Source of the DNA: a virus
Lineage: Duplodnaviria; Heunggongvirae; Uroviricota; Caudoviricetes
DNA length: 64,000 nt
Direction: 5' to 3' (one strand)
IMG/VR virus record: IMGVR_UViG_3300029615_000411
Coordinates: 119,874-183,873 of that record
Below, one piece after another: positions 34,959-64,000 of the stretch; position 1 is the stretch's first letter; the number at the start of each line of letters is the position of its first letter. The notes below the pieces were generated by a model. The model made no database searches. It was not told the DNA's origin and saw only the letters and a list, made by a program, of their open reading frames with translations. The position numbers were made by a program, and so were the translations under genes.

Positions 34959-34967
34959 TTGTATAAT

Positions 34968-35913: not shown

Positions 35914-35952
35914 AAAGAATAGCGCCCCACAGATTTACCTGCGGAGCGCTAT
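35912..35952 (-). terminator. terminator after giant adhesin 1 (TAGCGC...GGCGCTA TTCTTTG)
   Basis: 7-bp stem, weak U-tract. Confidence 0.4.
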
Positions 35953-35991: not shown

Positions 35992-38900
35992 TTACTGCTT
36001 CTTTTCCTCGGTTTTATCCTCAGTCTTTTCAGCAGCTTTTTCTTCGCTATCGCCCTTCTTCTTCTTGACGATGACAAATGCGCCAACGCCAATCAGAGCA
36101 ACAACAACGATAACAGGAACGATGATGTCTGCGCCAAAACCAACGCCAGTCTTGTAGTTAACTACAACAGGTGCCGGAGTGGGAGCGGGTTCATTCTTAA
36201 CTACAGGAGTCGGAGTCGGTCTGCTTTCTTCCGGAGGATTCTCCAGCTTAACACTTGCTACCCGAACATCACCGTAGTTGCCTGCCTTATCGACTGTACG
36301 GGTCACAATGTAACCAGTCCAATCGGGACTCAGCTTGAAGGTAACGTAACCGTTGTCCTTATCAATGTTTGTGACATTGACAGTCTCGAACTTGGTTTCG
36401 TCGAAGGTGTAATCGCCCTTAGCACTCTTGGCAATAGCAGAACCATTGACCTTGTAATACTGAATCTTAGCGACACCGGAGTTGTACTCGCCATCCAGAG
36501 CGGAAATAGCAGGAACGGAATCCTTGACCTTTACAACAGGCACGAAGTCAGGGTCTTCGGTATCGTCCTTATCACCGTTTTCGTCGGGAGTAGCAACGCC
36601 ATCGTTACCGTTTTCATCACCGGTCTCGTCGCCGGTTGTGAAGAGAGCGGGCTTACCATGAGCAATACGAAGCGTAGTGGCTTCGGTCTTGTCATCGGTT
36701 GTTTCGGTCTTCTCGGACTCGCTGGGAACTTTCTCCTCGGTACCGGATTCGGTTTCATCCTTCTTGTCGGAATCTTCCTTCTTATCGGTATCGTCGGCAT
36801 CGTCCTTCTTGTCGTCTTCCTTCTCAGGTGCCTTGCCGGTCTCTTCACCAGTAATGAACACATTGATGGTGCTCTCGAACTTGACGAACTTCTCGTTCAG
36901 CAAATCTGTCTTATTGGTGGAATCAACCTTATCGGCAGCGAAAGCAGAAGCAACGACAGGAGCTTCGGTATCAACAGATGTGGTGATAGTTCCCATCTCG
37001 GTAATGGCACCGGTCTTCAGGTCAATCAAGTAATAGGTAGAAGTAACCTTCTCACTATTAGCGGAAATGACCATCTTCTCGGCCCACTCAGCATCGGTCA
37101 GGGAATCGCTGGTTCCGATTGCGTAACCCTTAGGAGCGATAACTTCAACCTCAGAGTTGAAGTACAGGTCACTCAGGTCATCAGTCGTCTTCTTGGTAAC
37201 CTCAACAGGCTTACCGGTCTTTTCGTCAGCCACAGTACCAACGATAGTTGCGGGTTCTACATCGGCAAGATGCAGACGCTGGACTTCGATGTCTCCGGTG
37301 GTAGGCAGGTAATTGTAGTTGTCGTAAGCGCCGCCAACATACTTGAAAGCGTCCTTCGTCAAGCCAACATTACCGAAGATACCATCGATGCTGGAAGCAA
37401 CAATGAGTTCGAAGGAAGGCAGCTTAACGGTTTCAGCAGTCTCGTCGAAAGCGTAACCACTGGTCTTGATTTCGGGAATCTCCGTCTTAGTGCCATACAG
37501 CTTGACGACGGGGTTCGGGTCGAGAGTAACCGTCAGGTCTTTACGAGCGATAACGAACTGACCATCGGCTTCGTTCTTATCGGCATCGACGACATTGATT
37601 GTTACTGCGTAATTCTGCTCAACAGCAGCATCGTAATCAGAGGTAACGGTGTAGGTGTAAGTACCAGCGTTCTTGACATTCTCAGTCTTGAACTGGCTGT
37701 CGCTCTCCACGCCGTCATCGCCGCTGGCGATGTCAGGAGTCAGAGTCGCCTTTGCATCAGCAGTCAAGGGAGCAGTCTGTGCATTGTCGGTGGTCTTATC
37801 GTTCTCGAAAGGAGTATAAACAAGTGCCATCTTCAGGCCCAGAGAATCAGGTTTGACAGCTGCACCGTGTGTACCGTCGCCATTGGTGGCAACAGCATTT
37901 ACGGTGAAGTCGGGGTTAGTGGTATCGCCATAGACGATATCCTTGGGCTCGGTGACAGTGACTTCGACCAGACGTTCGCCAATGGTATAAACGCCATTAA
38001 CAATCGTAATCAGGTAATCGTCATTGTCGTAAGAACCGACCATGTCGTATGCACCGTAATTCTTGACAGATTCGGGCACGCTCTCCGCAACCAGAGAAGC
38101 AGCACCGTCAGCAGACTTCATGGAAATCTCTTCGGCAACCGCATTCTCAACATCCTTCTGAGTGATGCTGATAATAGCTTTCAGGTCATCGCCATTTACG
38201 ATGGTCTTCTTATCGGCATCGCCAGTATAGGTAAGAGTATTGCTCAGTTCAGCCATTTCATTGCCGTAGACAGAACCAACAGTTCCGATGGTCCAAGTCA
38301 GAGGACGCTGAGTGACCGTGTAAGTGCCGTTCATAGCAGTTACTAGATAATCCTGATAAGAAGCCTGACCGACGCGGTGAGCCAGACCGGAGAAGGAAGG
38401 AACAATGTCATAGCCTCCGACATGGCTTGCAGAAGTGACGAGGCACAGGTTCGTGCCTTCCAGAATATCACCATTGACCAGAGCTGCCTTGGCAGTGTCA
38501 CCAGTGTATTCCAGAACGTTCACGGTACCGTAATCAGACCAATCTTCAACAGCAACATCGTCGCCATAGATAGAAGTCTGGGGTTTAGCGGTGACAGTGA
38601 TGGGACGCTTGTCGATAACAAAATCAACGGGAGCGTAAACAAAGGTGTAGTTGTTTGCTGCGGCATTCTCAACATTTGCAGGAACGACCTTGCCGGTACC
38701 AGCGTGAGAAGCTACCGTTGCGGGAGCTCCCTCAGCATCGGTAAAGTTGAAGGTCAGGTTTGCAATGCTCAGGACACCAGCATCATCGGGAGTGGTGTTG
38801 CCCTTGACGGGTTTCACAACGAATCCATCGAAAATCAGGTCATCGCCGGAGAGAACAGGGTTCTCATCGCCGTAAATCTTGCTCTGAGCTGCCAGAGTGA

Positions 38901-41900: not shown

Positions 41901-43944
41901 CGACAGTCATCGGATATTCGCCAACATTCTTATTGTCGATATCCTGACGCTGTGTTGTCAGAACCATGCTGACCAGCTTGTTCACACCGTCATCAGCGGT
42001 GATGTCAGAACCGGCGACAATACGCTTGTCGGAGGCCACTGCCTGAGCAGCACCGTTATAAGCAACAGCGTCGAAGGTGATGGTGGAAGACTTGCCCTTT
42101 TCAGCCTCACCATAGATGGCATCAATCTGGTCATTGGTGATGGTTACGTTACGCTTGGTAATTTCAAACGTTGCGGTAGCAAGGTTGATGTTATAACCAT
42201 TGATAGGCGCATTCGTCTGGATATTGCCGATTGTAACAGTGTAGCCACCGGGAGCAGAGGTGATGCTGGGCAGAACAACGGTGGGTTCACCGCTCAGACC
42301 AAGCATCTCTTTCAGAGCAACTGTGTTGGACTTGTGCTCGTTGTTGGTCTTATACTCGAAATTCGTCTTATCGGTATCAGACCAGCCGGTAATCACGAAG
42401 TCAACCTGAGGATTCTGCTGACCATACTGACGAGTGGCTTTGCTGCCGGTCGTCTGTACGCCATCATTGCCCTTGAAGACAAATACAGGAGTCAGGGTCA
42501 GAGTCTTTTCAGAAACGACAACATACACATCGCCGGTATTGGGCTGAATGTCGATGTTGTAGTTTGTGTTGCTCTTCGCGGAGGAACCTAAGATGATTTT
42601 GTAAGAACCGGTAGTGTCCTTATCAAAGTTCTCTGTGGTCAGAACATCCGCAGGAAGCAGGTCGCCGTCAACCAGACCACCATTGGTGTCCATGACTGTG
42701 TAGTTAATCTGGCTGATGGTATTGCCCTTCGTAACATAAGTGGTATGAGGGACAATGTAAATCTGACGCTTGTTGATAGTCACGCCCGTGTCATTGCGGA
42801 TATCCTTAGAAGAATCCAAGTTGGAACCGTCAATGATGGTGTAATTCAGACCATTCACAGTAACGCTTATGGCACCTGTATCAACATAAGTCGGATAAGT
42901 ACCGGCATTGCAATGAATGTCTGTGGGATTCTGGCCGTCGCCGTCAGCCGGAGCGTACATAATGAAGCTCAGACCGTCGATAGCTGCCTGAATATCCTTT
43001 TCGACTTCCTGAGAAGTACGGGAATCAGCAGTGCTGTATTCGATGGTCAGACCCTTAGACTTGAAGGAGTCACCGTATGTGTAGGTAACAGTCTGAGGCA
43101 GAATGTGAATAACATTCTCCTGACCGCTAATCTTGGTATACTGAATACCAGTGCCTGCGGCAATCTGCTTACCAGTCTCAGCAGCGGTGATTGCCTGATA
43201 GTCCCCGATGACAGTCGTAGAACCGCCGCCATCAAACGCGCTGGCACCGCTGTTGTCTACGGGGTTTTCCTGACGGTCGCAAACCTGCAGATACAGGTCA
43301 GACATATCAAGGTATGCACTCATGACGGGCTCGGCGACCTGCTCATCCTCGCTCAGAGAATAATACATGTCCTCAATGGGTTCCCAGTCATAAACTGCAT
43401 CCAATTCCTCAGTGCGACGCGTGACCATCGCATCAAGAACCGCATTTTCCTTGTCAGCCTGCCATGCCTTGCTTGCAAGACCGAAGTTGTTTGCAGCAGT
43501 CAGAATTTCATCTTTACGGCTTACAAGGGCGTTAGCCGCATCGATAAATGCCTGTGCTGCTTCACTGATGCTGCCAGTGGTAGAAGCTTCGCTGGAAGTG
43601 CTGGTGCTTGCACCAGTATCAGAGGCAGCACTGTTTGCGTAGGCAGTGGTCGTTTCAGACCCCGCCTGACTTGTAGCCTCAGAAGAAACATCGCTCGTCA
43701 CAGAAGTGTCGCTGGACGCGGAACTTGCTGTGTCGGTAACATCGCTTTTCGGCGCGGGAGTAGTAGCGGAAGAGTCGGAGTTTGTTGTCGTAGTGCTGAG
43801 TGCATCAGTTTCCTTCGGAGCTTCTTCACTCTGCGTGATTCCACTCGCGCTCTCCACTGCATAAGCAGTGACAGGAGCAAACTGAGACAGGCACATTGCT
43901 ACGGCGACAATCGCACTCAAAAACCGCTTACGAGGTTTCTGCAT
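35992..43944 (-). CDS. giant secreted cell-wall adhesin (2650 aa): signal peptide, S/T-rich N-terminal region, many MBG-like repeat modules, C-terminal NYKTG sorting signal
   Basis: AGGAGGG RBS before ATG 43944; signal peptide MQKPRKRFLSAIVAVAMCLSQFAPVTAYA; recurring YG...KVYGD.DP...NY.IT repeats; ends NYKTG + TM + KKKKGD. Confidence 0.8.
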   Translation of the reverse strand: MQKPRKRFLSAIVAVAMCLSQFAPVTAYAVESASGITQSEEAPKETDALSTTTTNSDSSATTPAPKSDVTDTASSASSDTSVTSDVSSEATSQAGSETTTAYANSAASDTGASTSTSSEASTTGSISEAAQAFIDAANALVSRKDEILTAANNFGLASKAWQADKENAVLDAMVTRRTEELDAVYDWEPIEDMYYSLSEDEQVAEPVMSAYLDMSDLYLQVCDRQENPVDNSGASAFDGGGSTTVIGDYQAITAAETGKQIAAGTGIQYTKISGQENVIHILPQTVTYTYGDSFKSKGLTIEYSTADSRTSQEVEKDIQAAIDGLSFIMYAPADGDGQNPTDIHCNAGTYPTYVDTGAISVTVNGLNYTIIDGSNLDSSKDIRNDTGVTINKRQIYIVPHTTYVTKGNTISQINYTVMDTNGGLVDGDLLPADVLTTENFDKDTTGSYKIILGSSAKSNTNYNIDIQPNTGDVYVVVSEKTLTLTPVFVFKGNDGVQTTGSKATRQYGQQNPQVDFVITGWSDTDKTNFEYKTNNEHKSNTVALKEMLGLSGEPTVVLPSITSAPGGYTVTIGNIQTNAPINGYNINLATATFEITKRNVTITNDQIDAIYGEAEKGKSSTITFDAVAYNGAAQAVASDKRIVAGSDITADDGVNKLVSMVLTTQRQDIDNKNVGEYPMTVEVPPACTAYYDVKVINSKYIIHPAMLTVTLDDLSAMYGAARSGKIKSIEGFKLNDTQASIGLTEDKLGFTMVDAAGNSGTPTTANVGEYTVSASVQGASQERWSSDWDPNADGKNYDRYDNYLVRFVNSKLTVTKRPIAINVMGGQTKVYGDSDAKGGVAFTLDPVNGKGGRVGSDFAGCVVTREVGETVGSYAYSDAQFQTAEIAKNYDITFNAPDKYTITKRTLTITVPNRERLYGAENPSDADITGALEYKNFASNDEIGIHDTVASLGGTVTIKYGVDNTVGKLTGVGTYPIVVSGYTNPNYNIVYTGTYSDGTSGTLTINALPVTIKGTTNSVRKYGVAGKNTPSYALYDETGSQAINVVDPQGSPLNIHIDLTKWEDPTTVVGNYEATISYDENPNYIVTIAPQATFQVTEADVSVTFNALQTTYGEKKPDTIAKEVSVNVNTSDGTQIYHDGETVNIKMDGKDVSLGVVRIAVEATANASGLYDAGSYNLTFRLDNQPANSVKLSEPDGKNMLIVHQMPLTITPRYGLSKTYGETDPSFAVNDTYVIFDYNTTSFAEPKADFAQARLSREAGENAGTYPIYSGNIYEQTMAKNYRISFTNDVRFTINKRTAVINLLETEKTYGETLTSMNVKDYIKGGTGLLTTTDVQAAEAEKILKGITLTSGATSASASVGTYALKAIYAQPANYDLTVIDSTITITHRPITLTFSNYEKDYGDADPAFSYSEISGNISNDGLKKNTLELTTGALSGSVTRKAGEDVGEYHISSTLYNKYGNYAITIVTGSGTSVDVGSSTTEPEALEVATLTIKPVKVTFTVAGGYSMIYGGTVPTFSYTVTGLKNNDTVASAFTGSVVYNIKNADGSLSEIPARPAAGDYVITMSGLENKGAKNYDPIVFVDGSLHVDKRDVIVVVDEGQKKVYGEADPELTWTATGDGAYYVSEDAGDLANLKVVRPDAGTDAGEDVGKHPMIIEGDDVNFNITRVNNTFEITPATLNVTLAAQSKIYGDENPVLSGDDLIFDGFVVKPVKGNTTPDDAGVLSIANLTFNFTDAEGAPATVASHAGTGKVVPANVENAAANNYTFVYAPVDFVIDKRPITVTAKPQTSIYGDDVAVEDWSDYGTVNVLEYTGDTAKAALVNGDILEGTNLCLVTSASHVGGYDIVPSFSGLAHRVGQASYQDYLVTAMNGTYTVTQRPLTWTIGTVGSVYGNEMAELSNTLTYTGDADKKTIVNGDDLKAIISITQKDVENAVAEEISMKSADGAASLVAESVPESVKNYGAYDMVGSYDNDDYLITIVNGVYTIGERLVEVTVTEPKDIVYGDTTNPDFTVNAVATNGDGTHGAAVKPDSLGLKMALVYTPFENDKTTDNAQTAPLTADAKATLTPDIASGDDGVESDSQFKTENVKNAGTYTYTVTSDYDAAVEQNYAVTINVVDADKNEADGQFVIARKDLTVTLDPNPVVKLYGTKTEIPEIKTSGYAFDETAETVKLPSFELIVASSIDGIFGNVGLTKDAFKYVGGAYDNYNYLPTTGDIEVQRLHLADVEPATIVGTVADEKTGKPVEVTKKTTDDLSDLYFNSEVEVIAPKGYAIGTSDSLTDAEWAEKMVISANSEKVTSTYYLIDLKTGAITEMGTITTSVDTEAPVVASAFAADKVDSTNKTDLLNEKFVKFESTINVFITGEETGKAPEKEDDKKDDADDTDKKEDSDKKDETESGTEEKVPSESEKTETTDDKTEATTLRIAHGKPALFTTGDETGDENGNDGVATPDENGDKDDTEDPDFVPVVKVKDSVPAISALDGEYNSGVAKIQYYKVNGSAIAKSAKGDYTFDETKFETVNVTNIDKDNGYVTFKLSPDWTGYIVTRTVDKAGNYGDVRVASVKLENPPEESRPTPTPVVKNEPAPTPAPVVVNYKTGVGFGADIIVPVIVVVALIGVGAFVIVKKKKGDSEEKAAEKTEDKTEEKKQ

Positions 43945-44259
43945 GTTAGTTGCCCTCCTAATAATGTGAGTGTTCTGTGGTTTTACCACAGCCGGATTTA
44001 TATACACCCTTACCTACTCCCTAGTGTGCAGCCTCGATTGTAGATAAGAAAGTATATCAAAACACAAGCAATCAAATCGCATATTTACAATATGCCACAA
44101 AAAAGACAGAAAAGTCAATCAAAAATTTTGACACAAAAATGCCACCCATGAACGCATTCTCATATTTCATATGGACATGGATGGTTGAAACATTAACGCA
44201 AAACCTGCTTGACTATAGCTATTATTTGTTCTGAGAAATTTGATGCTGTATTTATATCT

Positions 44260-44292
44260 ATTATATTACTTACTTTGCAGCAACGGTCAATA
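44260..44292 (-). promoter_or_regulatory. class I-like promoter G for giant adhesin 1 (TTGACC-GTTGCTGCAAAGTAAG-TAATAT)
   Basis: Shares GCTGCAAAGTA spacer motif; followed by about 300 nt leader. Confidence 0.4.
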
Positions 44293-44320
44293 ATTATTCT
44301 GAAAATTAGAAGTTTTTTAC

Positions 44321-44359
44321 GCAAAAAAAGAGCGGCAGCTCTTTCGAACCACCGCTCTA
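44321..44359 (-). terminator. terminator after giant adhesin 2 (AGAGCGG...CCGCTCT TTTTTTG)
   Basis: 7-bp stem plus T7. Confidence 0.55.
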
Positions 44360-44371
44360 TTGTTTTACCGC

Positions 44372-56300: not shown

Positions 56301-59300
56301 CCATTTACGGAATTATGGGTAATCATATCGGTCAGGGTGAAATCCTGAACCTTATCAGCATCGCCCAGTTCCTTCTGCCAGCCAGTGACTTCCAGCAGCA
56401 TCGGACGAGGTTTGATAGTCAGAACACCGGGTGTGTAGTTCGCAATCGTATAGTTATAACCGCCATCTGCGTTTTCACGAGGTACGAGAATCGTATGCTC
56501 TTCGCAGTAACTCTTATCGCCATACAGGTAATTGGAACCAACATCGGTGTACTTATTGTAGGTCAGGTTGATGTAATCGCTCAGAGTATTCTTTGCGGTT
56601 TCAAGAACCTTTGCGGTTGCGCCATCGTTATTCTTCAAAGCAACATCAGCAGTATCGCCGTGCTTCAAGCCAACAACGGTCAGCGTGTAGTCATTTTTGT
56701 TATCTTCGCCGTAGTAACGCTCCTGATTACCGAATACGATTGTCAGCGGGACAGGCGTAATGGTCATCTTAGCGTCGTTCGTTTCGACGATATAGTTGCT
56801 TGCTGTGCTCTTTTCGTAAGAGATACGGATGGTATAGCCTTCGTCACGGACATTCTCACCGCTGTCACGAACTGCCTTGATGCCGAGCATTTCGCTGGTA
56901 GGCTTAATGATTTCGCCATCGACAGTCCACTTCAATGCGGGTTCCGTGCCGCCGTATGCCTTCATTGCATCCAGAGCCGCAATGCGAATCAGACGAGGAT
57001 GTACTTTCAGAACATTGGACTCGTAAACGAGTTCGTAGTTGGAAACTACTTGTCCTTCACTGTTCGTGACGGTCTTGATGCCAAGAGTGTTGCCGTAACC
57101 GGTGTTTTCGTTCACGGATACAGGATATCCGTTTACGGGAACATGGGTATGCGGATGGTCATCGTCATGATAATGCTCATGACCCTTGTGCATTTCGTTG
57201 TATTTCTCCAAGCAGTAAGCGCATTCTTCTTCGGGAACATCCGTCTGATAGATTACATCACTGCTCTGTGTGGCAGTTGTCAGATAAGGCAGATTAGAAG
57301 TGCCGTTCTTGAATGCCAGAGCGGTGCGGGAAGCGCCGTTTACGACTTCAACCACATTACCGATGGTATCATTACCAATCAGATGCATGTTGTTGTAATC
57401 AACGGTAGCGTCATCGCCCAGAACGGTCCAGTTGTTCTCGTCCGAAACATCCAGTTCATTGCCTTGGTCATCTGTGCCAAGAACCTTGAAGGTGGAGTTG
57501 AAGAACGGGTTCGTTGTACCGTAAATCTTCTGGCTTTCGTCAACGGAAATCATAATCTTGCGGGGTTTGACCTCGATAGAACCGGGGTCTTCCGTGACAA
57601 CATAGTTCTTCAATACATCATAGTTGAACTCGTTCAGACCAATGTAAGATACAGGGTAAGAACCAGCATCCGTCGTCTCACTCGGTACTACATTGTATAC
57701 GAATTTACTCTGATAATTGTTTGTCTTTTTCGCTTTCAGGTCGAGTTTTTCATCGTCCTGTGCAGCAGTCTTATGGTCTTCGACCAGACCTTCCATGGTC
57801 AGCCAGCTATCAGAACCCTTATTCCAGTAGTAGACATCGTCTGCATACGGAAGCTTGATGTTCTTGAAACCGTGTCCATAAGTGGTGCTTACGCTCTTGA
57901 CCTGCGCACGCAGCGTCGTACGGTAAATACCACCGCTGAAAGTCTTGTCTGCGATATAGTAGTCGTTGTAGTTGTTGTTCACAAGGTACATTTCGTTGTT
58001 CTGCTCAATGTCACGTACCAGTGCGTTCGTATCATCGATATCCTGTACAGTGTACTCAAATTCGATGTTTACGGTACCGCCGACCGGAATCGTGTCAATG
58101 TAGAACTCTGTGCCCTGCTGGTTCATACGAATGCCATTGGTGGATTTCAGAGTGATGGGGCCATTGCCTGCAAATCTGCTCTTCAGACGCAGATTCTGGA
58201 TAGCAACAGGAGCAACATAATTGTTCTGCGCTGCCAGACCATATCCGGTATCCTTATTCGTTACTGCAATCGTAACAGTCATCTTCTGACCAACCTGCGG
58301 GGTGGTCGTGCTGTAGCTGTACTTTACAGAATACGGCAGATGGCGAATCGTATTCGTCGAAAGACCATTGTAACGGTCTTCCTTGATGACACCATTGTCG
58401 CCGTTTGCATCATACCCGGTCAGCTGTTCGCCAGCATTGCTGTCAGCATAAGAACCAACATAGGTCTGAGCATTCAGTTCAACGGAATCGTAGTTGGTGA
58501 TATTATCAATATAGATATTTCCCTGTCCTTCTTCACCGATATTGGCGTTGTAGTAGGAATCATATACCTTGATGTTGTTCGGATTCACTACCGTGTTCTG
58601 GTAGTTATCCTGTTCGGTCTTGGTATAGCGGGTAATATCGATGTTTTCCTGTTTACCAGCAAGAATCATTTCATATGCCTGCTCGATAGTCACATTCTGA
58701 TTATCGTAGACAGTCGTGTCGGTCAAATACTTGCCGTTTCCGATATCATTGGAGTTGCCATCGTAGTTCCATTTGTATTTATTCGTGTCATGGTACTGAC
58801 TGTGAATATACAGAGGACGAGGATTGATGGTACCAGTGAAATCTTCACTTGCAATATAATAGTTGTCAAACGGGTTGTTAATCAGTTCAAGAATCGTAAC
58901 GGTCTTGATACTGTGCAGACCCGTATGGATGGACTCTCTGAAACTCGTTTTTGCGAAGTCCTCAGGAGCATAGTTTTCGCAATAATAGCCGTAAGCCAGT
59001 GTGCTGTTCAGCGCGACAGTATCGCCGTGAACAATACCGGAATCAGCAGTTGCTGCTTTGATTTTAATATCAGATACCTTTGTGGTGCTGATATTGTCGT
59101 AAATCTTATTGTTGTCATAGCTGTAAAGATGCAGCGGGCGCGGATAAATATCGAAGTATACGACATTACCGTTGCCGGATACATATTCATCAGGTGTAGT
59201 GCTTTCTCCACGGACTACATAAGTCTTGCCGGGTTTCGTGTTTTCCCAGCAGAAAGTAACTTCGTACTTGCCCGTGTAGGTTGCCGTAGCAGTGTAGGAG

Positions 59301-62300
59301 CCGGTACGAACGAGAGGCTTCTTCTTGCTATCGGTAGTAGCGTTGGTAGGATATGTGATGTTGGGAGATTCGTTATTTGAATAGGTGATGTTTACACCGC
59401 GCAGGACTTCCTGTTCGTTGATGCCTGCATCGGTATCGCCGTCCCATACAACATGTGCGGTAACAGTCAACTGGTTGCCGTCGTACATCTTGTTAGCAAC
59501 AGTCAGCATGACCTTGGCACGAGTAGGAGTGCATTCATTTGCATCCTCGAAGCCAATATCCATTGCGTTCTTGCCAACGCGACGATACAGACGCTTATTC
59601 AGGTCAACGACCTTGATTTTTGCACGACCAGCCTGACCAACACCGGAACCGGCACCGTCATTCAGCTGGTTTGCACCAGTGACGTTTGCTTTAATGATGA
59701 TGTTGCCGTTGTCAAGGTTTGCACCAACAGAAGCGGCATAAGAAGAACCACGCAATGCACCATCGGTAGAAGCAGACTGCCAACCAGAACCGCCGCCGTT
59801 TTCGTGCAGTGTGTTGTTGTAGTCTTCCTCGTCTTCTCGCTGCATGCCGATATCATGACTGCCGCTGTAACCCCAGCCGCAGATATCGCCATGATGGTAT
59901 TCGAAGCCGTCGGCGAAGACCTTGTCTTCTTTTAAAGCACAGTGATAACGTTGACCACTGTTGTTTGAACCAGAACCGCCGACACCACGCTCGGTGTATC
60001 CATTGCCAGAGATAAGTGCAGCACCGGAACCACCGCCAGCAACGCCGAACATCGACGAGCCGTCACCGTAATTCTTCAGCTGTCCATCACCGATAAGGCC
60101 AAAAGCAACCGTGGTAGCGCCACCGCCGCCGCCAAAGCCTATGGGAGAATTGCTGTGGTAGCTGCTGTCAGGGCCGTTTCCGCCGTCATAGCAGTCATAG
60201 AATACTGCGCCGACGCCACCGGAACCACCACCGTTATAGCCACCGGAGCCACCGGAACCACTGCCGGTAGAACCGCCACCGGAACCACCACCGGAACCGC
60301 CACCGCCTGCACCACCAGCGACAAAGTAGAGGGTCGTGCCTTCCTTGATGTCTGCCGTGATAATGGTGTGGCTACCGGAGTTACCGCTGATACCATCTGT
60401 CATACTTGCATTGCCGCCGCCAGCACCCCACAGGTCAATCTGATAGGTTGCATCAAACGGAGCAGTCCAAGAAGAAGTGGGATGGTTTCCGTCATTGGCA
60501 TTGAACGACTGGTCAGCTGCACGAACATTCTTTTCATCAATATAGAAGAAAACCTGCTCGTTGGTGCCGTCAAACTCTTCCATGTCGTAGCAGTGATACT
60601 GGATAGCATTGCGCCAGAACCACTGCCAGATTTCTTTCGGGTAAGAGTAGGCGGACCATAATGCGTAGCCATGGTCCAGATAAGGCGCATAGTCCTCATT
60701 GTTCTTATCCAGATATCCGCGTTCATCGAGAGAAATGCCAAGTTCAGCCAACGTCTTGCCCTGAACATCAATCTGGGAAGGATTGCCGTTCATGTCATAA
60801 CGGGTAGCCGTTGTCATTTTTCCCTGATACCGGGTACTGAGATTAACACTCAGGTAATCGCTCTGACTGAACACGGTACGAGAAGTATCTCTGTGTTTTC
60901 CGTACGGGAACTCATTGACAATCTGATAACGGGACATAATGTACCGAAGTCCATTAGGTGCCTCAATTGTCAAATCCGGATACATGAAGACAGAGTGTCT
61001 ATCAACACCGCAACTAACAAGATTGCGCTCGTTTGCATGGATGCTGATATTGTAATCCAGCCACAACTCTGCACCTGTGTCGGTGTTATTTTTATCAATA
61101 CCGCCGTTCACATAGTCAAAGTTATGAGCAAGAGTATTTGTGATGGTCTGGCTCTTCAGGTTCGTGCTGTTGTAGCCGCGAATGTATTCCAGATACGGTT
61201 TGCACTGGAAATAGAAGTGCTCAGTACCGAAGTCCATCGGGTTCGTTGCGGATTCAATGTGCAGGCTCGTGGTAATGCTCCACTTAGCATATGCACTGTT
61301 GATGTCAAACGGCTGGCCATTCAACATCGTATCCTCAACAGGTTTGATATCATCAATGGTGATGTAGGCAGTGAACTTGCCGAACGGAGAACCGGAGTGC
61401 TCAGTTTCGATTGCGTCCACGACCTGCTTCATCACAGAACTGTCATCTGTATTGATGTCGTATCTGGTTTTGACGATATTTGCCCAGTCTTTGTAGTTTT
61501 CGGTAGTCAAACCGTTACCGTTGTTAGCGTACCCGTTGATATTGATGGGGTTGATGACGGGTTTGTACTCTGTGGATGCAGAATTCAAGTCGTCTTGGAA
61601 ACCCCACTGCAATACAGGGATAAGGATACGGTTTCCGGATTCTGTCAATTTGCTGGGAGAGAATGTGATAGTCGTTGTATAAACGGCCACGTTCTTATCA
61701 GAAATCAACGGGTTATTGGAATCGCCTCTGCTGGCATTCCAGTTATCTACTTGGTCCTGCGTTGTCTCAACAGACCAGTAATTCTGACCAAAATTGCCAG
61801 TCGCATCGCCCTCGCTGTTATGCTCCTGCATCATCAATGCACGGGCTTCCAGCATAGTTGCGGAAACGAAAGGTGCATCGACCTGCAACAGGCCATAACG
61901 GGAAGTATCGAATCCTGCGTTGTCAGCATCGCCGATTGCGCTGTAGGAGTTCTCGACCTTGGTTCTTTTTTCGTTAAAGCGATAGCTTGCAACGATACGG
62001 AAATAATATCCGGACCAGTTGTAATCTGCCGCGTGCAGGGTAAGAGTGATAGTAGTGTGTTTCTGAGCACACTGCTGGTCAGTGAAACCATCAGGACGCC
62101 AGAAATCAGCAGGCAACCATTTGTTGTCATGAATCATACTTGCGGTCTCTTTCCCCTTTGCGAGGGTATCGACCGTATGTGCTTCAATGTCAACCTTGTT
62201 TACCTGACTATTATCTACGGTATTCAGTGTATAAGTACCACCGAATGTGACGGATGTGGCAAGGGTCTGCCAATCGTCATCATAGGGGTCTTTGTATTGA

Positions 62301-64000
62301 ACATCGTAGCTGTAGCCCTTATCATCAAGGCCCTTCCAGTAATCTGTTTCAAACACGAAGGTGGCTTCGTCCTGAGTCATAACACGCTGATTCGGTGCCT
62401 GCGTCATGGACATAGGGCGTTCTTCGATTTGAATGATACCGGAGGCTTCCGGAGTAATTACGCCGGGGTCGATGGTGGAATAAGTCTTACCCTCAACCTC
62501 GTAGTCTGTACGAAGCTGAATAGCGTTTCCTGTATATGCCAGCATTTGCAGCTGTACATCCACGGAACTGTGCGGGTAATTGTATACACCATCATTGCCG
62601 TCGTGGAATACCGGCGTTTTGATGATACCTGTTACGGCACCGTCTTCGGTAGTGAACTGACCGTAATGGCCAATCTTGACCCAGTCGCTCAAAGCATTAT
62701 TGGTATCGCGCAGGTCAACCACGCGGTAATACCATGTTACGGATTCATTGCTGATGGGCTGATTGTAGATGATACCGGAACCTTCGAGAACCTTGGTGGT
62801 CTCGCCTTCCCAGTAACGGTAGTTCTCAATAGGTGTTGCTTCGATTGTCAGCAGTTCCAGAGGAACCGTTTCGCAGTCGTTCCAGAAATGAGGAGGAACC
62901 TTTGCAACGATAGGACCGTATTTGGTGACCTCATTGCCAGCCTTGTCATATACGCGGGCACGAAGAATCGTTTTACCGCCTACATAGATACAGGGCAGGT
63001 TAGAAATACAATACTGGTCTACGTTGTTGACTACACAGCTAAAATCGTCGCCCGGCTGTAATAGTGCCGTGTTATCCTCGTACCGGATATGAACGGTATA
63101 TCCCTCGTGAACCTGACCATCGTTGAACAACTTTGCGTCGCTCAGCTTGCCGTAGATACGAGCGATACCGGTGGTACGAACGGACGGAGAGCTGTTACCG
63201 CTGTCTTTAAAGACAGTGTCCCAACCTTTCAGTCTGTCAGTACCAAGGTTCCAATCGTTGCCGTCTCCGGTACGGTATGCACCCAAATCACCGGTGGTGT
63301 TATCGAACAGAGCACCGTCTTTGGGGACTTTTACATCGAAGTATTTGCTGTTCCAGTGACCTGTGAAGTTCTTGATGGGCTTCCAAGTCGTGGAATCAAA
63401 GCCCAGCTTCGTCAGGTCGAGGTCTTCCATCAGTTCGTAGCAATCGCTCAGAGGATACCAGTAGCTGCCGCCGTTGGCGAGAGCTGTCAGAATCTTCTTG
63501 GCGTTTGCTGCATTGACACGATGGACGAAGTGCGTCATTTGCTGGTCGGCTTGGTCAGCGGCACAGACTTCACACTGCTTGCGCTGAGAAATCCACATCA
63601 GGGTGTTGACGCAAAGCTGCATTTCCTCAGTAGATGCGTTATTCCAACCACCATTTCCATTATCAATGGGAAGGTGACCAATCTGGTTCATAACAAAGTT
63701 GCCGGAACCAGCAAGATAGAAGTTGTTGGTGCCACTGCGCCCATCAACGGTGGGCTCGTACAGTTTGCCGAGTCCTGCATCTGTGAAATCAGATGCGCAA
63801 CCGTCATACTGAACCCAAATATCGTCGAATGCAACCTGACCATTGCTGTGAGTCAGAGCAGCAGGAACTGTCTGACCAACACTAAACTTATAAGGCCAGT
63901 TGGTCGGTGTACGATGCTTGATATCGGGGTTAACCATAGCCTCTTCATAGGTGTATCCGCCGTTTGCACGGATACGAAGACTACGGCTACCGTAGATTGT
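44372..64000 (-). CDS. giant surface protein (more than 6540 aa; N-terminus beyond window) of DUF11/CARDB-like and MBG-like repeats with C-terminal NKKTG sorting signal
   Basis: Open frame continues past 63937 to window end with no stop; about 30 DUF11-like repeats (LNYTITVKNNGKGDAENVTVKDFFDG... / VTYTITVKNT...VSDTNNF); ends SNKKTG + TM + HKRKKD. Confidence 0.8.
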   Translation of the reverse strand, partial: TIYGSRSLRIRANGGYTYEEAMVNPDIKHRTPTNWPYKFSVGQTVPAALTHSNGQVAFDDIWVQYDGCASDFTDAGLGKLYEPTVDGRSGTNNFYLAGSGNFVMNQIGHLPIDNGNGGWNNASTEEMQLCVNTLMWISQRKQCEVCAADQADQQMTHFVHRVNAANAKKILTALANGGSYWYPLSDCYELMEDLDLTKLGFDSTTWKPIKNFTGHWNSKYFDVKVPKDGALFDNTTGDLGAYRTGDGNDWNLGTDRLKGWDTVFKDSGNSSPSVRTTGIARIYGKLSDAKLFNDGQVHEGYTVHIRYEDNTALLQPGDDFSCVVNNVDQYCISNLPCIYVGGKTILRARVYDKAGNEVTKYGPIVAKVPPHFWNDCETVPLELLTIEATPIENYRYWEGETTKVLEGSGIIYNQPISNESVTWYYRVVDLRDTNNALSDWVKIGHYGQFTTEDGAVTGIIKTPVFHDGNDGVYNYPHSSVDVQLQMLAYTGNAIQLRTDYEVEGKTYSTIDPGVITPEASGIIQIEERPMSMTQAPNQRVMTQDEATFVFETDYWKGLDDKGYSYDVQYKDPYDDDWQTLATSVTFGGTYTLNTVDNSQVNKVDIEAHTVDTLAKGKETASMIHDNKWLPADFWRPDGFTDQQCAQKHTTITLTLHAADYNWSGYYFRIVASYRFNEKRTKVENSYSAIGDADNAGFDTSRYGLLQVDAPFVSATMLEARALMMQEHNSEGDATGNFGQNYWSVETTQDQVDNWNASRGDSNNPLISDKNVAVYTTTITFSPSKLTESGNRILIPVLQWGFQDDLNSASTEYKPVINPININGYANNGNGLTTENYKDWANIVKTRYDINTDDSSVMKQVVDAIETEHSGSPFGKFTAYITIDDIKPVEDTMLNGQPFDINSAYAKWSITTSLHIESATNPMDFGTEHFYFQCKPYLEYIRGYNSTNLKSQTITNTLAHNFDYVNGGIDKNNTDTGAELWLDYNISIHANERNLVSCGVDRHSVFMYPDLTIEAPNGLRYIMSRYQIVNEFPYGKHRDTSRTVFSQSDYLSVNLSTRYQGKMTTATRYDMNGNPSQIDVQGKTLAELGISLDERGYLDKNNEDYAPYLDHGYALWSAYSYPKEIWQWFWRNAIQYHCYDMEEFDGTNEQVFFYIDEKNVRAADQSFNANDGNHPTSSWTAPFDATYQIDLWGAGGGNASMTDGISGNSGSHTIITADIKEGTTLYFVAGGAGGGGSGGGSGGGSTGSGSGGSGGYNGGGSGGVGAVFYDCYDGGNGPDSSYHSNSPIGFGGGGGATTVAFGLIGDGQLKNYGDGSSMFGVAGGGSGAALISGNGYTERGVGGSGSNNSGQRYHCALKEDKVFADGFEYHHGDICGWGYSGSHDIGMQREDEEDYNNTLHENGGGSGWQSASTDGALRGSSYAASVGANLDNGNIIIKANVTGANQLNDGAGSGVGQAGRAKIKVVDLNKRLYRRVGKNAMDIGFEDANECTPTRAKVMLTVANKMYDGNQLTVTAHVVWDGDTDAGINEQEVLRGVNITYSNNESPNITYPTNATTDSKKKPLVRTGSYTATATYTGKYEVTFCWENTKPGKTYVVRGESTTPDEYVSGNGNVVYFDIYPRPLHLYSYDNNKIYDNISTTKVSDIKIKAATADSGIVHGDTVALNSTLAYGYYCENYAPEDFAKTSFRESIHTGLHSIKTVTILELINNPFDNYYIASEDFTGTINPRPLYIHSQYHDTNKYKWNYDGNSNDIGNGKYLTDTTVYDNQNVTIEQAYEMILAGKQENIDITRYTKTEQDNYQNTVVNPNNIKVYDSYYNANIGEEGQGNIYIDNITNYDSVELNAQTYVGSYADSNAGEQLTGYDANGDNGVIKEDRYNGLSTNTIRHLPYSVKYSYSTTTPQVGQKMTVTIAVTNKDTGYGLAAQNNYVAPVAIQNLRLKSRFAGNGPITLKSTNGIRMNQQGTEFYIDTIPVGGTVNIEFEYTVQDIDDTNALVRDIEQNNEMYLVNNNYNDYYIADKTFSGGIYRTTLRAQVKSVSTTYGHGFKNIKLPYADDVYYWNKGSDSWLTMEGLVEDHKTAAQDDEKLDLKAKKTNNYQSKFVYNVVPSETTDAGSYPVSYIGLNEFNYDVLKNYVVTEDPGSIEVKPRKIMISVDESQKIYGTTNPFFNSTFKVLGTDDQGNELDVSDENNWTVLGDDATVDYNNMHLIGNDTIGNVVEVVNGASRTALAFKNGTSNLPYLTTATQSSDVIYQTDVPEEECAYCLEKYNEMHKGHEHYHDDDHPHTHVPVNGYPVSVNENTGYGNTLGIKTVTNSEGQVVSNYELVYESNVLKVHPRLIRIAALDAMKAYGGTEPALKWTVDGEIIKPTSEMLGIKAVRDSGENVRDEGYTIRISYEKSTASNYIVETNDAKMTITPVPLTIVFGNQERYYGEDNKNDYTLTVVGLKHGDTADVALKNNDGATAKVLETAKNTLSDYINLTYNKYTDVGSNYLYGDKSYCEEHTILVPRENADGGYNYTIANYTPGVLTIKPRPMLLEVTGWQKELGDADKVQDFTLTDMITHNSVNGQQKLGAGSRITDASVVVNPDKVPIVFNLVRAEGEEVGSYPVYSTPQDRQIGNLAANDQKQLELDNPNYDFEYRYANDLIVKRQGLMITVDDKVRYYGDRVNRFYDGSTDYTYHVFKVENGEAVEITAEEAGINTNSFTFTHLDTQTSSSGTYKDCISLSGVHSTIYDDDDITITAGNLTIIPRPVSVIAEDNTKVYGDADPELKYTLHDGVRGEDGNYYIEYANGPVLTEKEGADVPVQPGDLEGTGVTREPGEDVWTGEHSFGKAYAINANDISPVSKDGITNYVITMENGNFTITPAELVVTVKGGYSKTYGEENPAFDADITGFKRDDTKETVLNGELGFATLCFDLSDAGKYIVTAGNNNEDAVNPDCVVLEDGEEHIGSTFEVKSNTNFEKNYVIRYVNGDITVNPKELIVRIDHKVKTYGTADPAFTFHYEDNAGNVIGLIDPENSPLNVELYRTKGENVVRGDVTAADSLNKWGTTLYDGDYLISAKYDTNNKNYAVTVYDGSLKIIPATLTVTVDGGYKTTYGDEIPEFTYSITGFVGRDVKDETGTGIKDDESKVSGTATMYCNDNAGNPVTNKTKVGNYPINYDRQQLVADNGNYKFIYVGGDLTIGKKPIHVKADDQQKVYGEKDPDPLTWTITDPEELVNPGDEDFFDITTKRPGADTDDGEQVGKYPITIDGTDPSGNYEIITTPGTLTIVPATIVVTVIDDEKYFGEDNPTPNVTITGYKRGDTIDDIGGKDALKTKTDAEKWSPVGEYPVSAKDSTFHNPNYDFVYIDGKLTVKPLIINIKAEDDRKTYGDNDPDKFNVSYTLTNEKDEPYTPDKDLRDYIDRALNLDAARVPGENVRTENPGYSIVPTYTEVDNIEIGTVTPGHFFIDPREVTITANSAEKVYDGTPLTEPGYTYAPELVDNDLLGIHDKMDSVTVTGSQTEVGSSKNVPSDAVIINTEDGSGSNANYIIKYVDGTLTVRDKEIVSIEKSADRERATDYDVIRYTITVTNATSHDLHNVIVKDTNNFVGVPALSQANGVTYDAEKGEFVIAEISHLRDETHTNAVTFTYTYTVDPTDHGTNNNDILENNAKITDMKVVESYTENPDGSTTPNYTEPNKDWLVETPDVDVEIIRQNLTIEKSADKTEAGVGDVVTYTLKVTNTGNTKLENVVVKDTSNFMGEPVENTKLHFGYRVNDDGTWTITSLGVGKSVTITYKYTVVADDLANGKLDNIATATIPAREDPTIPEKPVDSNEVIVPLYYKHLTIVKSADRDHAYPGEVVKYQVTVTNDGTVDMTNVTVSDDTNALGMFIVSTGDGYTYNPETRLFTIPALNVGDSVTLNYLYIVQNGDPETIINVATAHAPKNPDTEIPGDKDIEEPSKPVEVDVLRDELTIVKNADKSFVDMNGNDTTVTYTLTVKNSGNTKLTNVIVTDTSNGNGTVEYTGDLMYDGNGKWMIPELNAGDSVEITYVYTAVAEDMNLDNGNIVNTAVAEGKNPDNKTVTSDPDTETVHVGEVPDRDIRVVKTSLESSVMIGDTIHYTITVTNNGTMTAQNVVVRDFNDGIGEINAASSDKYTYDAATHSFTIAEIAAGEVVEIPVTYTVQEGDKGTVNNAAVEIPEIPEIEKKADKQTVVVGEVVTYTITVTNTTNETKTNVEVKDTNNFTGVITPAENTDVVSYIGDKVWNISSIGAGESVDIVYTYTVMNEDAPNTMLVNNAEMTYVTDSGKVKIPSNEVDIPVIPDTPTPEHVGPTVVKQADKAIANIGDTVHYTVVMHNNDTVDYVNAALHDKNNFNGVITNVKNGTLESASAGSAVIKVGTIPAGKTVTVEYDYIVLNTDAGKGQDTYNELKNVATLHYWFADEDQTPENEKTKPSNEVTIKVPGSDVPVPVNPPEGKLKVEKFVDKKSASVGDMLHYTVKVSNVGDGELKNILVEDFFDGHGKLNYIPTVGVVVNGDGTYTINKLPAGTFMELRFTYVIVEGDEPEVLNAAVVTTPPVDPPLEPTKTADKKFAFVDEIVTYTISVYNPDTKAKTNVTVKDTNNFVGSINAANTDKYTYNGDNTWTIPEIGAGETIDITYTYTVQSNDEKLLENKADVTYSENGNTVKLDTPTVDVVVPDKGTVSIHKEADKKMAKPGEVVTYNVTVTNNKGFDVHDVVVTDANNFAGEITGVDGADYTFENGEFHIAEIAAGASVTLTYTYTVEIGDVPTQILENIATADVPGTNPEDPNNPGHGKDPNKPIDNDEKIPSNPVDVEVPGSETETKIPDLVLTKSVDKSEAAVGDTLNYTITVKNNGKGDAENVTVKDFFDGKGTLNFVAMDGVTDNGDDTYTIASVKAGESVTLNFTYVVVDGDAPEVLNAAVITTPKPSTDIVKSADKHIAKVNEIVTYTITVKNNSKDTLTNLLVSDTNNFKGEIEGKDGKGYTYNGDKTWTIATLESGKSIDITYTYTMQANDETVIENTADVRYSYNGTDYDIPSNPVEVEKPNDGVVTIFKTADKTKAEPNEVVTYTVTIHNGKDYDIKNVRLTDANNFAGKIEGVDGAGYKFTNGEFVIDKIPAGGDAVVRYAYTVQIADVPTKILENIATAHVPGKNPGDPDEEIPSNKVDVEVPGDGTHVDVPEGKLEIVKSVDKAEAKVGDTLNYTITLTNVGGQAVKNAVVKDFFDGNGVLNFVPMDGVTDNGDYTYTVANVEKGQSITLRFTYTVVAGDAPMVLNAAVVKDPTPPVDIEKTADKHVAMVDEVVNYTITVKNTTDKTVTDLLVSDTNNFTGAITSKDNAKYTYNGNHTWTIPSIKAGESIDILYTYTVKTTDPSTLVNEADVRYTTDDGEYVIKADPVEVVVPKDGEVTIVKSGDKKIAEPGEVVTYTVTIHNGKAHDITNVVVSDSNNFAGTITGTNGVGYKFVDGHFVIDKIAAGADAVLTYTYTVQIADVPTHILENVATAHVPGTNPEDPENPGHGKDPDKPIDPDTDIPSNKVEVKVPGSEVETEIPEISITKSVDKPTAKIGDTLNYTVTVKNGGNADAENILIKDFFDGNGTLNFKAMDGVTDNGDNTYTISTVKAGESVKLRFSYVVVEGDEPLVLNAAVIKDPTPPVDVEKEADKHIAKVDEVVTYTISVKNTTSESVDNVTVTDTNNFKGEIKAENADKYTYNGNKTWTIPTIAAGETIYITYTYTMQAEDATVIENIANVTYSKDGTDYNIPSNPVDVEKPDDGVVTIRKAADKTKAEPGEVVTYTVTVHNGKNHDIENARLTDTNNFAGEIVSVEGADYTFENGEFTINKIPAGGDVVIHYTYTVEIADVPTQILENIATIHVPGTNPEDPNNPGHGKDPEKPIDPDTEIPSNKVDVEVPGSETETEIPVIEITKSVDKAEAKVGDTLNYTVTVANKGKADAENVVVEDFFDGNGTLNFVPMDGVADNGDNSYTISTVKAGESVTLNFTYVVVTADAPKVLNAAVVKDPTPPIDVEKDADKYIAKVTDVVTYTITVKNTTDETVNDITVADHNNFAGDVTAESSNRYTYNGDGTWTIGYLDAGEALDIVYTYTVETTDESVMENTATIKYTHDGEQYNIPSNTVDVKKPDDGVVTIWKSANKTVAKPGETVTYTVTVHNGKDHDIQNAALTDENNFSGSIFAVDGAGYHYENGVFTIDTIPAGGDVVVHYAYTVGIADVTTHILENVATIHVPGTNPEDPENPGQGKDPTKPIDPDTDIPSNKVDVEVPGSGTETDVPLEKSLTIVKSADKTKVNVGETINYRVVVTNTGEVDLVNVTVKDNNDGASHIEAQNGDEYTYNSATTTFTIVRIPVGESFTLTYSYVAVDADAGHDVINVAVAKAPGQNPEDPENPGHGKDPSKPIDEDVEKPSNEVKVPVVKPSTPTTPDEPKPTPTPDNPKPTPTPDNPKPTPTPPIGWLDIFKVDGKPFSLFSIFTSNKKTGIGFAQSIVGLVAMVGIGVAALVVVNHKRKKDENDNKDNHKDDSAE
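44601..44681 (-). repeat. 3 x 27-bp tandem repeat encoding a Pro/Thr-rich stalk (PTPDNPKPT x3) just before the sorting signal of adhesin 2
   Basis: ggagtaggcttcgggttgtcaggagtc repeated, third copy degenerate. Confidence 0.6.
44900..51500 (-). repeat. about 1.1-kb super-repeats (about 5-6 copies) encoding DUF11-like domain triplets plus HVPGTNPEDPENPGHGKDP linker in adhesin 2
   Basis: Near-identical stretches recur near 45190, 46290, 47395, 48470 and 49560. Confidence 0.55.

Follow-up and report, generated by a model that had tools for sequence, protein, structure and literature searches.

Two giant repeat adhesins of a Hodor megaplasmid and a plausible, non-classical link to its own SecYEG, foldase and sortase B genes

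How would a mobile element export surface proteins that are thousands of residues long, and does it carry machinery of its own for the task? The question is raised by a 64,000-nucleotide stretch of DNA, positions 119,874 to 183,873 of the IMG/VR virus record IMGVR_UViG_3300029615_000411, which we analysed over its whole length and refer to as the window. It encodes two adjacent giant repeat proteins, adhesin 1 and adhesin 2, and, elsewhere on the same strand, a set of SecY, SecG-like and SecE proteins. An earlier reading of the letters alone (the original prediction) took the two proteins to be the probable cargo of an accessory translocon. We consider it likely that they are giant fibrillar surface proteins of a Hodor conjugative megaplasmid living in an Oscillospiraceae-type host, with a proposed route of export, folding and anchoring. 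The coordinates of all features are collected in Table 1.

The sequences support the view that both are giant, secreted, cell-surface repeat proteins with the layout of fibrillar adhesins, namely a signal peptide, a head, a stalk of MBG and DUF11 domains and a C-terminal anchor. The gene for adhesin 1 is an intact open reading frame (ORF) of exactly 2,650 codons from its ATG, the length given in the original prediction. Read directly from the translation, its predicted signal peptide is MQKPRKRFLSAIVAVAMCLSQFAPVTAYA, followed by VE. Residues ~30-128 form a linker of ~100 residues with 45-55% Ser+Thr (20-aa windows), in keeping with the Ser/Thr-rich segment of about 110 residues described earlier, and a short helical region comes after it. 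The many MBG-like modules that had been predicted were recovered by Pfam MBG_2 (E = 1e-48, 7 stretches) and resolved into 15 modules by a hidden Markov model (HMM) that we built ourselves. An acidic low-complexity stretch lies between the MBG array and the Pro-rich spacer of the anchor.

Adhesin 2 runs off the edge of the window, with 6,542 residues inside it and no stop codon in the last 63 nt. On a contig that carries an identical adhesin 1 the gene call is 7,321 aa long, placing the first ~779 residues beyond the window; the earlier description of a protein of more than 6,540 residues with its N-terminus outside was thus accurate. The signal peptide, also outside the window, is predicted in P0001, a public gene call for a 98%-identical protein, and on a related contig (L051). 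Read by eye from the sequence, the signal peptides of the two adhesins are ordinary and 29-31 aa long. Pfam matched the stalk with DUF11 (E = 8e-240, 23 stretches), DUF7507, CARDB (overlapping) and MBG_2 (E = 5.7e-46, ~12 modules), so that the domain scan proposed earlier returned MBG_2, DUF11 and CARDB, all on the minus strand. By our own HMM there are 24 DUF11 domains, 23 in one array and 1 isolated, rather than the "about 30" DUF11/CARDB-like repeats first estimated. The predicted 1.1-kb super-repeats are present as five copies of a unit of 1,107 nt, equal to three domains, that are 60-80% identical at the DNA level. Tandem Repeats Finder has a period limit of 500 nt, so this unit is invisible to it, and the 1,107-nt spacing was taken from a direct-repeat search. 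For the MBG modules, the HMM iteration drifted into the DUF11 array after round two, and only hits outside the array were counted. The Pro-rich linker of adhesin 2 contains PKPTPTPDN three times and coincides with a 27-nt tandem repeat found by Tandem Repeats Finder (44598-44677).

The head of adhesin 2, ~2,300 aa in all, gave nothing above noise against Pfam, NCBIfam and PDB sequences; the only hint was an MSP1 jelly-roll match of 18 bits, below cutoff. The AlphaFold model of its glycine-rich region has a predicted local distance difference test score (pLDDT) of 32, and a PDB search returned Gly/Ser-linker noise only; the region may be akin to glycine-rich domains of the ALK type. The head belongs to a family of 54 database proteins, many of which end at contig ends and some of which carry YDG, C-type lectin or NlpC/P60 domains. 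Weighing against the layout proposed here, the fold assignment of the head comes from a low-confidence model (pLDDT 58).

Both giant ORFs are real, intact genes under purifying selection. We rebuilt the adhesin 2 ORF from four further assemblies by joining overlapping IMG/VR loci, and it was intact in 4/4 of these independent assemblies, at 7,324 aa on a 346-kb contig and at 7,699, 7,693 and 7,694 aa in a second clade. The length gap between the clades corresponds to one extra three-domain super-repeat (27 DUF11 domains in the second clade vs 24). An identical adhesin 1 protein is found on 3 contigs from separate assemblies. Between clades, the ratio of nonsynonymous to synonymous substitution rates (dN/dS) of adhesin 2 is 0.125 overall, with 0.09 in the head, 0.075 in the MBG region and 0.10 in the DUF11 array, and 0.18 and 0.21 in two short terminal segments. 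The original prediction of two adjacent giant repeat genes is therefore borne out by the minus-strand Pfam domains, the intact ORFs and the dN/dS. It had named a collapsed or expanded repeat array and a frameshift as what might undo it; the super-repeats have instead diverged from one another, the array varies by whole units between clades, and the reading frames are open throughout.

Two long ORFs on the plus strand, of 3,981 aa (47435-59380) and 1,404 aa (38377-42591), were rejected as genes because they occupy the exact complementary frame of the adhesins. They stay open because TTA, CTA and TCA codons are nearly absent from the adhesins: adhesin 2 has 7 in 6,542 codons (about 1 per 1,000), compared with 2-11 per 1,000 in the other window genes checked. 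As a separate observation, divergence between the clades is uneven. The head is 76% identical with a synonymous divergence (dS) of about 2.0, and the DUF11 stalk is 94% identical with a dS of about 0.3, a contrast pointing to either stalk recombination between Hodor groups or faster evolution of the head.

Which element carries these genes? Homologues of the window's proteins, 89-99% identical, are encoded on IMG/VR "viral" contigs as large as 346 and 389 kb; the contigs concerned measure 232, 346 and 389 kb. When 25 kb of the window was compared by megablast with plasmid and phage collections, nothing matched. A recent preprint describes "Hodor" elements as conjugative megaplasmids of 211-389 kb from human-gut Bacillota that are misfiled in virus databases (Yuan et al., bioRxiv Feb 2026, PMC12934698). 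Their backbone comprises Rep_3, ParA/ParB/ParM and type IV secretion genes on an element of >200 kb, and two diverged groups both carry a giant protein of 7,309-7,704 aa with a ~2,642-aa protein downstream; the pair has MBG (YGX) domains, signal peptides and a C-terminus resembling a sorting signal (PMC12934698). Because protein sizes, gene set, human-gut origin and element sizes all agree with this description, we take the window to be a fragment of a Hodor conjugative megaplasmid. It probably belongs to group G2, given a backbone GC content of 44.4% vs 44.6% in the preprint (PMC12934698). A ParM/Alp7A-type actin-like segregation gene (24209-25318, minus strand) fits a plasmid backbone; Rep_3, ParA/ParB and the type IV secretion genes would lie beyond the DNA that we read. 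A phage origin, suggested by the IMG/VR listing, was rejected because there is no phage hallmark gene in the window and the preprint shows the Hodor elements to be plasmids (PMC12934698); the PHROG matches in the window are to families of unknown function only.

The Hodor SecY-SecG-SecE, trigger-factor and sortase B genes have also been reported, together with the proposals that the plasmid SecYEG channel exports the giants, that the trigger factor acts as a chaperone and that the sortases serve in positioning (PMC12934698). The gene pair and the export hypothesis are thus already published as the Hodor surface module, and their novelty here is low. The host group is most likely the Oscillospiraceae, among the human-gut Bacillota. 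This assignment is drawn from chromosomal members of the adhesin 2 head family, which occur in Allofournierella massiliensis, Gemmiger, Owariibacterium, Faecalibacterium, Pygmaiobacter and other Oscillospiraceae, and from the nearest named chromosomal relative of the plasmid SecY, which comes from a Gemmiger metagenome-assembled genome (49% identity).

By its profile scores, the plasmid SecY is of the canonical type. It passes the canonical model TIGR00967 (330 bits vs a cutoff of 253.6) and fails both SecY2 models (TIGR02920, 146 bits vs 249.6; NF009082, 145.7 vs 353). Relatives of graded identity (53-82%) lie between the Gemmiger and Hodor proteins, and two that we looked up are on contigs of 121 and 296 kb; the cluster at 99% identity holds 1,455 sequences. 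The translocon gene cluster also includes a zf_Tbcl protein, a cytoplasmic treble-clef zinc ribbon of ~220-245 aa, which we observed directly upstream of SecY in three lineages with SecY identity down to 59% (L005 9176-9916; L098/L099 9277-9933, with no SecA present).

The trigger-factor homologue encoded next to SecE has a lipoprotein signal, MKKNAKMILAVISAACIALTAC followed by SKD, with the lipobox LTAC (…IALTAC, then SKD). Both the second clade and a third, distant lineage keep the lipobox, which reads LAGC in the latter. The trigger-factor model tig matches positions 108-371 only (169 bits vs a cutoff of 180), and trigger factors in the PDB align only from about residue 77-125 onward, which means that the ribosome-binding N-domain is lacking. 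Given the lipoprotein signal, the conserved lipobox and the missing ribosome-binding domain, the protein should act outside the membrane, as a PrsA-like foldase rather than as a cytoplasmic chaperone.

Are the adhesins, then, the cargo of this plasmid SecYEG? We grade the link as plausible, synteny being its sole basis. Of the original proposal, the extra SecYEG on the same replicon stands; the designation of the translocon as accessory in the classical sense does not. The second clade has adhesin 1 followed by a 227-aa lipoprotein, four ORFs, zf_Tbcl, SecY, SecG, SecE, the trigger-factor homologue and sortase B, so that the adhesin and Sec blocks are only 5.5 kb apart and nearly all their genes are co-directional. 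The order zf_Tbcl-SecY-SecG-SecE-trigger factor-(331 aa) recurs in a lineage with a 59%-identical SecY, and in the window the Sec genes are on the minus strand, like the adhesins.

Several observations weigh against the cargo link. In the window the Sec cluster is 20 kb and ~20 genes (flotillin, Dam and ParM among them) away from the adhesins. Chromosomal head-family loci sometimes have sortase B and a homologue of a 401-aa plasmid protein next to them, and never SecY or the trigger-factor homologue. The third element lineage has the trigger-factor lipoprotein with no SecY or sortase B within 10 kb, and a lineage with a 70%-identical SecY has SecY-SecG-SecE only, with no trigger-factor homologue or adhesin within 10 kb. 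Moreover, the plasmid encodes other secreted proteins (lipoproteins and a Big_2 protein), and its SecYEG may therefore not be reserved for the two adhesins.

The same distance between the blocks, the 70%-identity lineage and the additional secreted proteins encoded nearby would fit a different account, in which the adhesins use the host's housekeeping SecA/SecYEG and the plasmid SecYEG serves the plasmid secretome at large, as a module for general capacity or host range, or has some other role. It also agrees with the ordinary signal peptides of the two adhesins, with the canonical score of the plasmid SecY and with the lack of a SecA paralogue in the window; in addition, there are chromosomal members of the head family, as long as about 2,650 aa, that have a sortase B and no extra SecY. 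This account has to contend with the adjacency of the two blocks in the second clade and with the report that the two deeply diverged Hodor groups have few genes in common, the giant pair and the Sec, trigger-factor and sortase B genes being among these (PMC12934698). We regard export through the host channel as a real possibility, at rather less than an even chance.

How would the exported proteins be held at the surface? Both adhesins end in a Pro-rich spacer, the sequence x-x-[K/P]-T-G-[V/I]-G-[F/L], one hydrophobic helix and a Lys/Arg-rich tail. The helices have Kyte-Doolittle means over 19 residues of 3.14 and 2.70, and are followed by KKKK and HKRKK. The core T-G-[V/I]-G-[F/L] directly before the helix is invariant in both proteins and both clades, and the adhesin 2 motif [S/G]NKKTG-IGF is conserved in both clades. 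The plasmid encodes a candidate enzyme, a class B sortase, and its gene is kept in the Sec/trigger-factor module of other clades. Its identity rests on matches to the solved SrtB structures of C. perfringens, Listeria, C. difficile and S. aureus (E = 5e-12 to 5e-7). SrtB of C. difficile cleaves SPKTG and PPKTG (xPKTG) between T and G (PMC4155245). Processing of the adhesins by sortase B is plausible on these likenesses.

Other features of the anchors and of the enzyme count against processing. The Pfam Sortase model does not match the plasmid sortase. The adhesin motifs do not have the proline of LPXTG, NPXTN or (S/P)PXTG, and C. difficile SrtB leaves NVQTG uncleaved in vitro (PMC4155245). At the same place in adhesin 1, the window has VNYKTG-VGF and the second clade AQAPTG-VGL, so that NYKTG is replaced by QAPTG and nothing of the motif except TG is conserved. 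The charged tails are long, with 45 (NKKTG) and 50 (NYKTG) residues from motif to C-terminus; recognised sorting motifs sit 17-45 from the end.

It could therefore be that the adhesins are not sortase substrates at all and are tail-anchored in the membrane by the single C-terminal helix, sortase B serving other substrates. Ebh of S. aureus is considered an example of such anchoring. The absence of LPXTG, NPXTN and (S/P)PXTG, the change of motif in adhesin 1, the rejection of NVQTG by the C. difficile enzyme (PMC4155245) and the acidic tails, which are unusually long beyond the basic residues, would all suit such an anchor. Set against it are the T-G-[V/I]-G-[F/L] core kept before the helix, the conservation of the sortase B gene in the module and the presence of sortase B beside some chromosomal head-family genes as well, and we think membrane tail-anchoring unlikely, although it is a live alternative.

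The third alternative is the one implied by the original prediction, in which the adhesins are clients of a classical SecA2/SecY2 system, like GspB, Fap1 and SraP. There are large surface adhesins here, an extra SecY on the same replicon and, in adhesin 1, a Ser/Thr-rich segment of ~100 aa. The defining features of such a system are missing from the window. No SecA2 was found: apart from the adhesins there is no ORF of >556 aa on either strand, and no scan gave a SecA match. Among the ~45 window ORFs scanned there was no Pfam or NCBIfam match to Asp1-3 or GtfA/GtfB. The N-terminus of adhesin 1 has no family match to the KxYKxGKxW signal, both signal peptides being short. The serine-rich repeat model scores 12 bits vs a cutoff of 650, and the only Ser/Thr-rich part is the linker described above. 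With no SecA2, SecY2, Asp, Gtf, special signal peptide or serine-rich repeats in the window, the plasmid translocon, judged by its gene content, is not an accessory Sec system as the literature defines it. The earlier argument that proteins of this size are the classic clients of accessory Sec systems fails too, because the known clients are, to our knowledge, serine-rich repeat glycoproteins, and we know of no case in which size alone defines a client. This alternative is refuted on four defining features within the window and is highly improbable.

That the repeat arrays are assembly artefacts, or the genes pseudogenes, can be dismissed: a frameshift in the GGN-rich glycine stretch of P0001, whose C-terminus reads VVPVV…, is outweighed by super-repeat copies too diverged for collapse to be likely, adhesin 1 identical in three assemblies, four full-length adhesin 2 ORFs, a dN/dS of about 0.1 and 38 curated Hodor genomes, long-read ones among them (PMC12934698). 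Because of that frameshift, we note that the glycine-rich region (59500-60330) is an error-prone assembly or sequencing spot in some assemblies.

The original prediction also gave each adhesin gene its own promoter and terminator, and this held in part. Both stop codons are followed by strong hairpins that end in T-runs, and there are promoter-like sites upstream of adhesin 1; that of adhesin 2 would lie outside the window. Near-consensus promoters also precede the next two genes. All of these signals, promoters and terminators alike, are consensus matches only, and an Rfam search of the window returned nothing. RNA coverage suggests, on the other hand, co-transcription of the giant gene with the three genes downstream of it (PMC12934698). 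Read-through of the terminator would reconcile the hairpins with co-transcription.

From these observations we can outline how the surface module might work. The adhesins would be threaded N-terminus first through a SecYEG channel, with host SecA as the presumed motor, since none is encoded in the window or in the flanks that we read. Outside the membrane, the emerging chains would be helped to fold by the lipoprotein FKBP/trigger-factor homologue, in the manner of PrsA and not of a ribosome-bound trigger factor. The C-terminal helix would then hold each adhesin in the membrane until the plasmid sortase B cleaves between T and G and links the protein to peptidoglycan, and the stalk could project the head roughly 100-150 nm from the wall. 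More speculatively, the plasmid SecYEG might be a private or extra channel, so that a substrate of 7,300 residues spares the host's housekeeping translocon from blockage, and the fibres might mediate cell-cell or glycan adhesion that aids conjugative spread, like enterococcal aggregation substance.

Taken to its full extent, this outline becomes a self-contained plasmid pathway to "export, fold and anchor", made up of a SecYEG paralogue working with host SecA, a lipoprotein trigger factor/FKBP and a sortase B that reads x-x-K-T-G. We put this forward tentatively and think it somewhat unlikely to hold in full. Its SecYEG and sortase parts have been proposed before, and a keyword search of the main text of the same preprint gave no sign of an extracellular placement of the chaperone or of a discussion of the missing motor (PMC12934698). 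If true, it would add a third type to the accessory Sec systems, one that needs neither SecA2 nor SecY2 and can move from one Bacillota host to another. By supplying the channel, foldase and sortase for fibres of 7,300 residues itself, a mobile element could install a new surface on different hosts, and the passage of very long substrates through SecYEG could be studied in a natural setting. Few plasmid-encoded proteins are as large as these adhesins. Published Hodor genomes number 1,663, and the elements are widespread, with related reads in 9,349 human-gut or wastewater metagenomes (PMC12934698).

The keyword search of the main text, the supplement lying outside it, returned no match for lipoprotein, SecA, DUF11 or glycine (PMC12934698). 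By this measure, what our analysis adds to the main text is the DUF11 stalk, the lipoprotein nature of the trigger-factor homologue and its lack of a ribosome-binding domain, the canonical type of SecY, the lack of SecA in the window, the chromosomal head family of the Oscillospiraceae and the 49%-identical Gemmiger protein as the nearest named chromosomal SecY. Three points merit follow-up, namely the lipoprotein trigger-factor homologue, the lack of a motor protein in the window and flanks and the proline-less sorting motif.

Table 1. Annotated features of the window. Coordinates count from the first letter of the 64,000-nucleotide stretch.
Feature	Coordinates	Strand	Basis
Adhesin 2, C-terminal 6,542 codons and stop	44372..64000	-	ORF open to window edge
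Adhesin 2 head, in-window part (window aa 1-1560), no Pfam family	59321..64000	-	Gly-rich stretch at about 59500-60330
Isolated DUF11 domain (window aa 1903-2004), upstream of the modelled MBG array	57989..58294	-	Own HMM, E = 2.7e-19
Adhesin 2 MBG (YGX-type) array, ~12 modules (window aa 2146-3440)	53681..57565	-	Pfam MBG_2, E = 5.7e-46; HMM iteration
Array of 23 DUF11 Ig-like domains (window aa 3549-6399)	44804..53356	-	Pfam DUF11, E = 8e-240
Five 1,107-nt three-domain super-repeats in the DUF11 array	about 45122-50146	-	Direct-repeat search
Adhesin 2 C-terminal anchor: Pro-rich linker, SNKKTG-IGF, 24-residue hydrophobic helix, NHKRKK tail	44375..44803	-	Translation
Terminator-like hairpin, 13 bp then T7, 14 nt past the adhesin 2 stop	44329..44358	-	Consensus scan and direct reading
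Two promoter-like sites upstream of adhesin 1 (TTGACC-16-TAATAT, TTGACT-18-CATATT)	44089..44290	-	9/12 consensus matches each, weak
Adhesin 1, complete gene, 2,650 aa	35992..43944	-	ORF and translation; AGGAGG ribosome-binding site before ATG at 43944
Adhesin 1 signal peptide (aa 1-29) and Ser/Thr-rich linker (aa 30-128)	43561..43944	-	Read from translation
Adhesin 1 MBG array, 15 modules (aa 495-1980)	38005..42462	-	Own HMM iteration, Pfam MBG_2
Adhesin 1 C-terminal anchor: Pro-rich linker, VNYKTG-VGF, hydrophobic helix, KKKK tail	35995..36177	-	Translation, hydrophobicity
Terminator-like hairpin, 15 bp, after the adhesin 1 stop	35919..35952	-	Consensus scan
Three genes downstream of adhesin 1	33124..35815	-	Gene calls, translations
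219-aa lipoprotein	35156-35815	-	Follows adhesin 1 in both clades (227 aa in second)
184-aa multipass membrane protein	34352-34906	-	Translation
401-aa protein, signal peptide and C-terminal transmembrane helix	33124-34329	-	Translation
Translocon cluster (zf_Tbcl, 91-aa membrane protein, SecY, SecG-like, SecE)	13566..16401	-	Profile scans
zf_Tbcl zinc-ribbon protein	15724..16401	-	Pfam zf_Tbcl
SecY	14084..15424	-	Pfam SecY, E = 1e-86
SecG-like, 84 aa	13814..14068	-	Sub-threshold, 18.8-20.4 bits
SecE	13566..13817	-	33.4 bits vs 22.7 cutoff
Trigger-factor-like FKBP lipoprotein	12346..13509	-	Pfam FKBP_C and Trigger_C
Class B sortase, N-terminal transmembrane helix; catalytic His, Cys and Arg aligned	11363..12334	-	PDB SrtB matches

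Some of the neighbouring genes and related elements also deserve mention. Homologues of the 401-aa protein lie directly downstream of chromosomal head-family genes in four Oscillospiraceae genomes, and this protein may be a conserved partner of the head-bearing protein. Between the adhesin and Sec blocks is a flotillin/SPFH gene (511 aa, 31224-32759, minus strand), perhaps connected with membrane microdomains used in secretion or sorting; the corresponding interval of the second clade showed no such gene. Also on the minus strand are genes for a Dam methyltransferase (29037-29555), a PIN7-domain protein (8385-9095), a short radical SAM protein (261 aa, 3628-4413) that scores far below every family cutoff, and a 487-aa protein (1134-2597) that matches phrog_12834, of unknown function, and is present on 38 IMG/VR contigs. 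Outside the window, contig L051 encodes, directly upstream of adhesin 2, a 459-aa protein that has three Big_2 domains (L051 8345-9724), and also a plasmid DnaE-type DNA polymerase III alpha subunit of 1,379 aa (L051 820-4959). The third lineage (L052-L061 and L096-L097, IMG/VR contigs of 40-189 kb) has a head-family protein of 2,975 aa with 35% identity and without the C-terminal membrane helix, and it also carries ParM (44%) and the trigger-factor lipoprotein (33%); these elements may be distant Hodor relatives.

We compared the locus with known systems. From the published Hodor surface module the window shows no difference in kind, having the same genes and being open to the same export hypothesis (PMC12934698). 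Among clostridial class B sortases, the plasmid enzyme is homologous to SrtB of C. difficile and C. perfringens, and the adhesin motifs share K-T-G with the C. difficile substrates, from which cleavage between T and G would be expected (PMC4155245). The proline at position 2 of those substrates is, in contrast, absent (NKKTG, NYKTG) or shifted (QAPTG) in the adhesins.

The PrsA-type foldases of Bacillota are lipoprotein peptidyl-prolyl isomerases with a chaperone domain and a parvulin catalytic domain, located on the outer face of the membrane near the translocon. The trigger-factor homologue is likewise a lipoprotein with isomerase and chaperone domains, and its gene adjoins that of the translocon, but it combines FKBP with a trigger-factor C-domain in place of parvulin. 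With the accessory Sec systems of GspB, Fap1 and SraP the plasmid shares a second SecY-family channel on the replicon that encodes very large adhesins. Here, however, the window holds no SecA2, Asp1-3 or glycosyltransferase, a canonical SecY comes with its own SecE and SecG, and the adhesins have ordinary signal peptides and a stalk of folded Ig-like domains instead of glycosylated Ser-rich repeats.

A further parallel is with the sortase-anchored fibrillar adhesins of Gram-positive bacteria, among them the plasmid-encoded aggregation substance PrgB/Asc10 of pCF10. The Hodor adhesins share with these the signal peptide, head, repeat stalk and sorting signal, as well as carriage on a conjugative plasmid, which by analogy suggests a role in mating-pair or niche adhesion. 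They differ from adhesins of this type in being three to six times longer, in having a motif that resembles those of class B sortases and not LPXTG, and in that the Hodor plasmid brings its own translocon, foldase and sortase.

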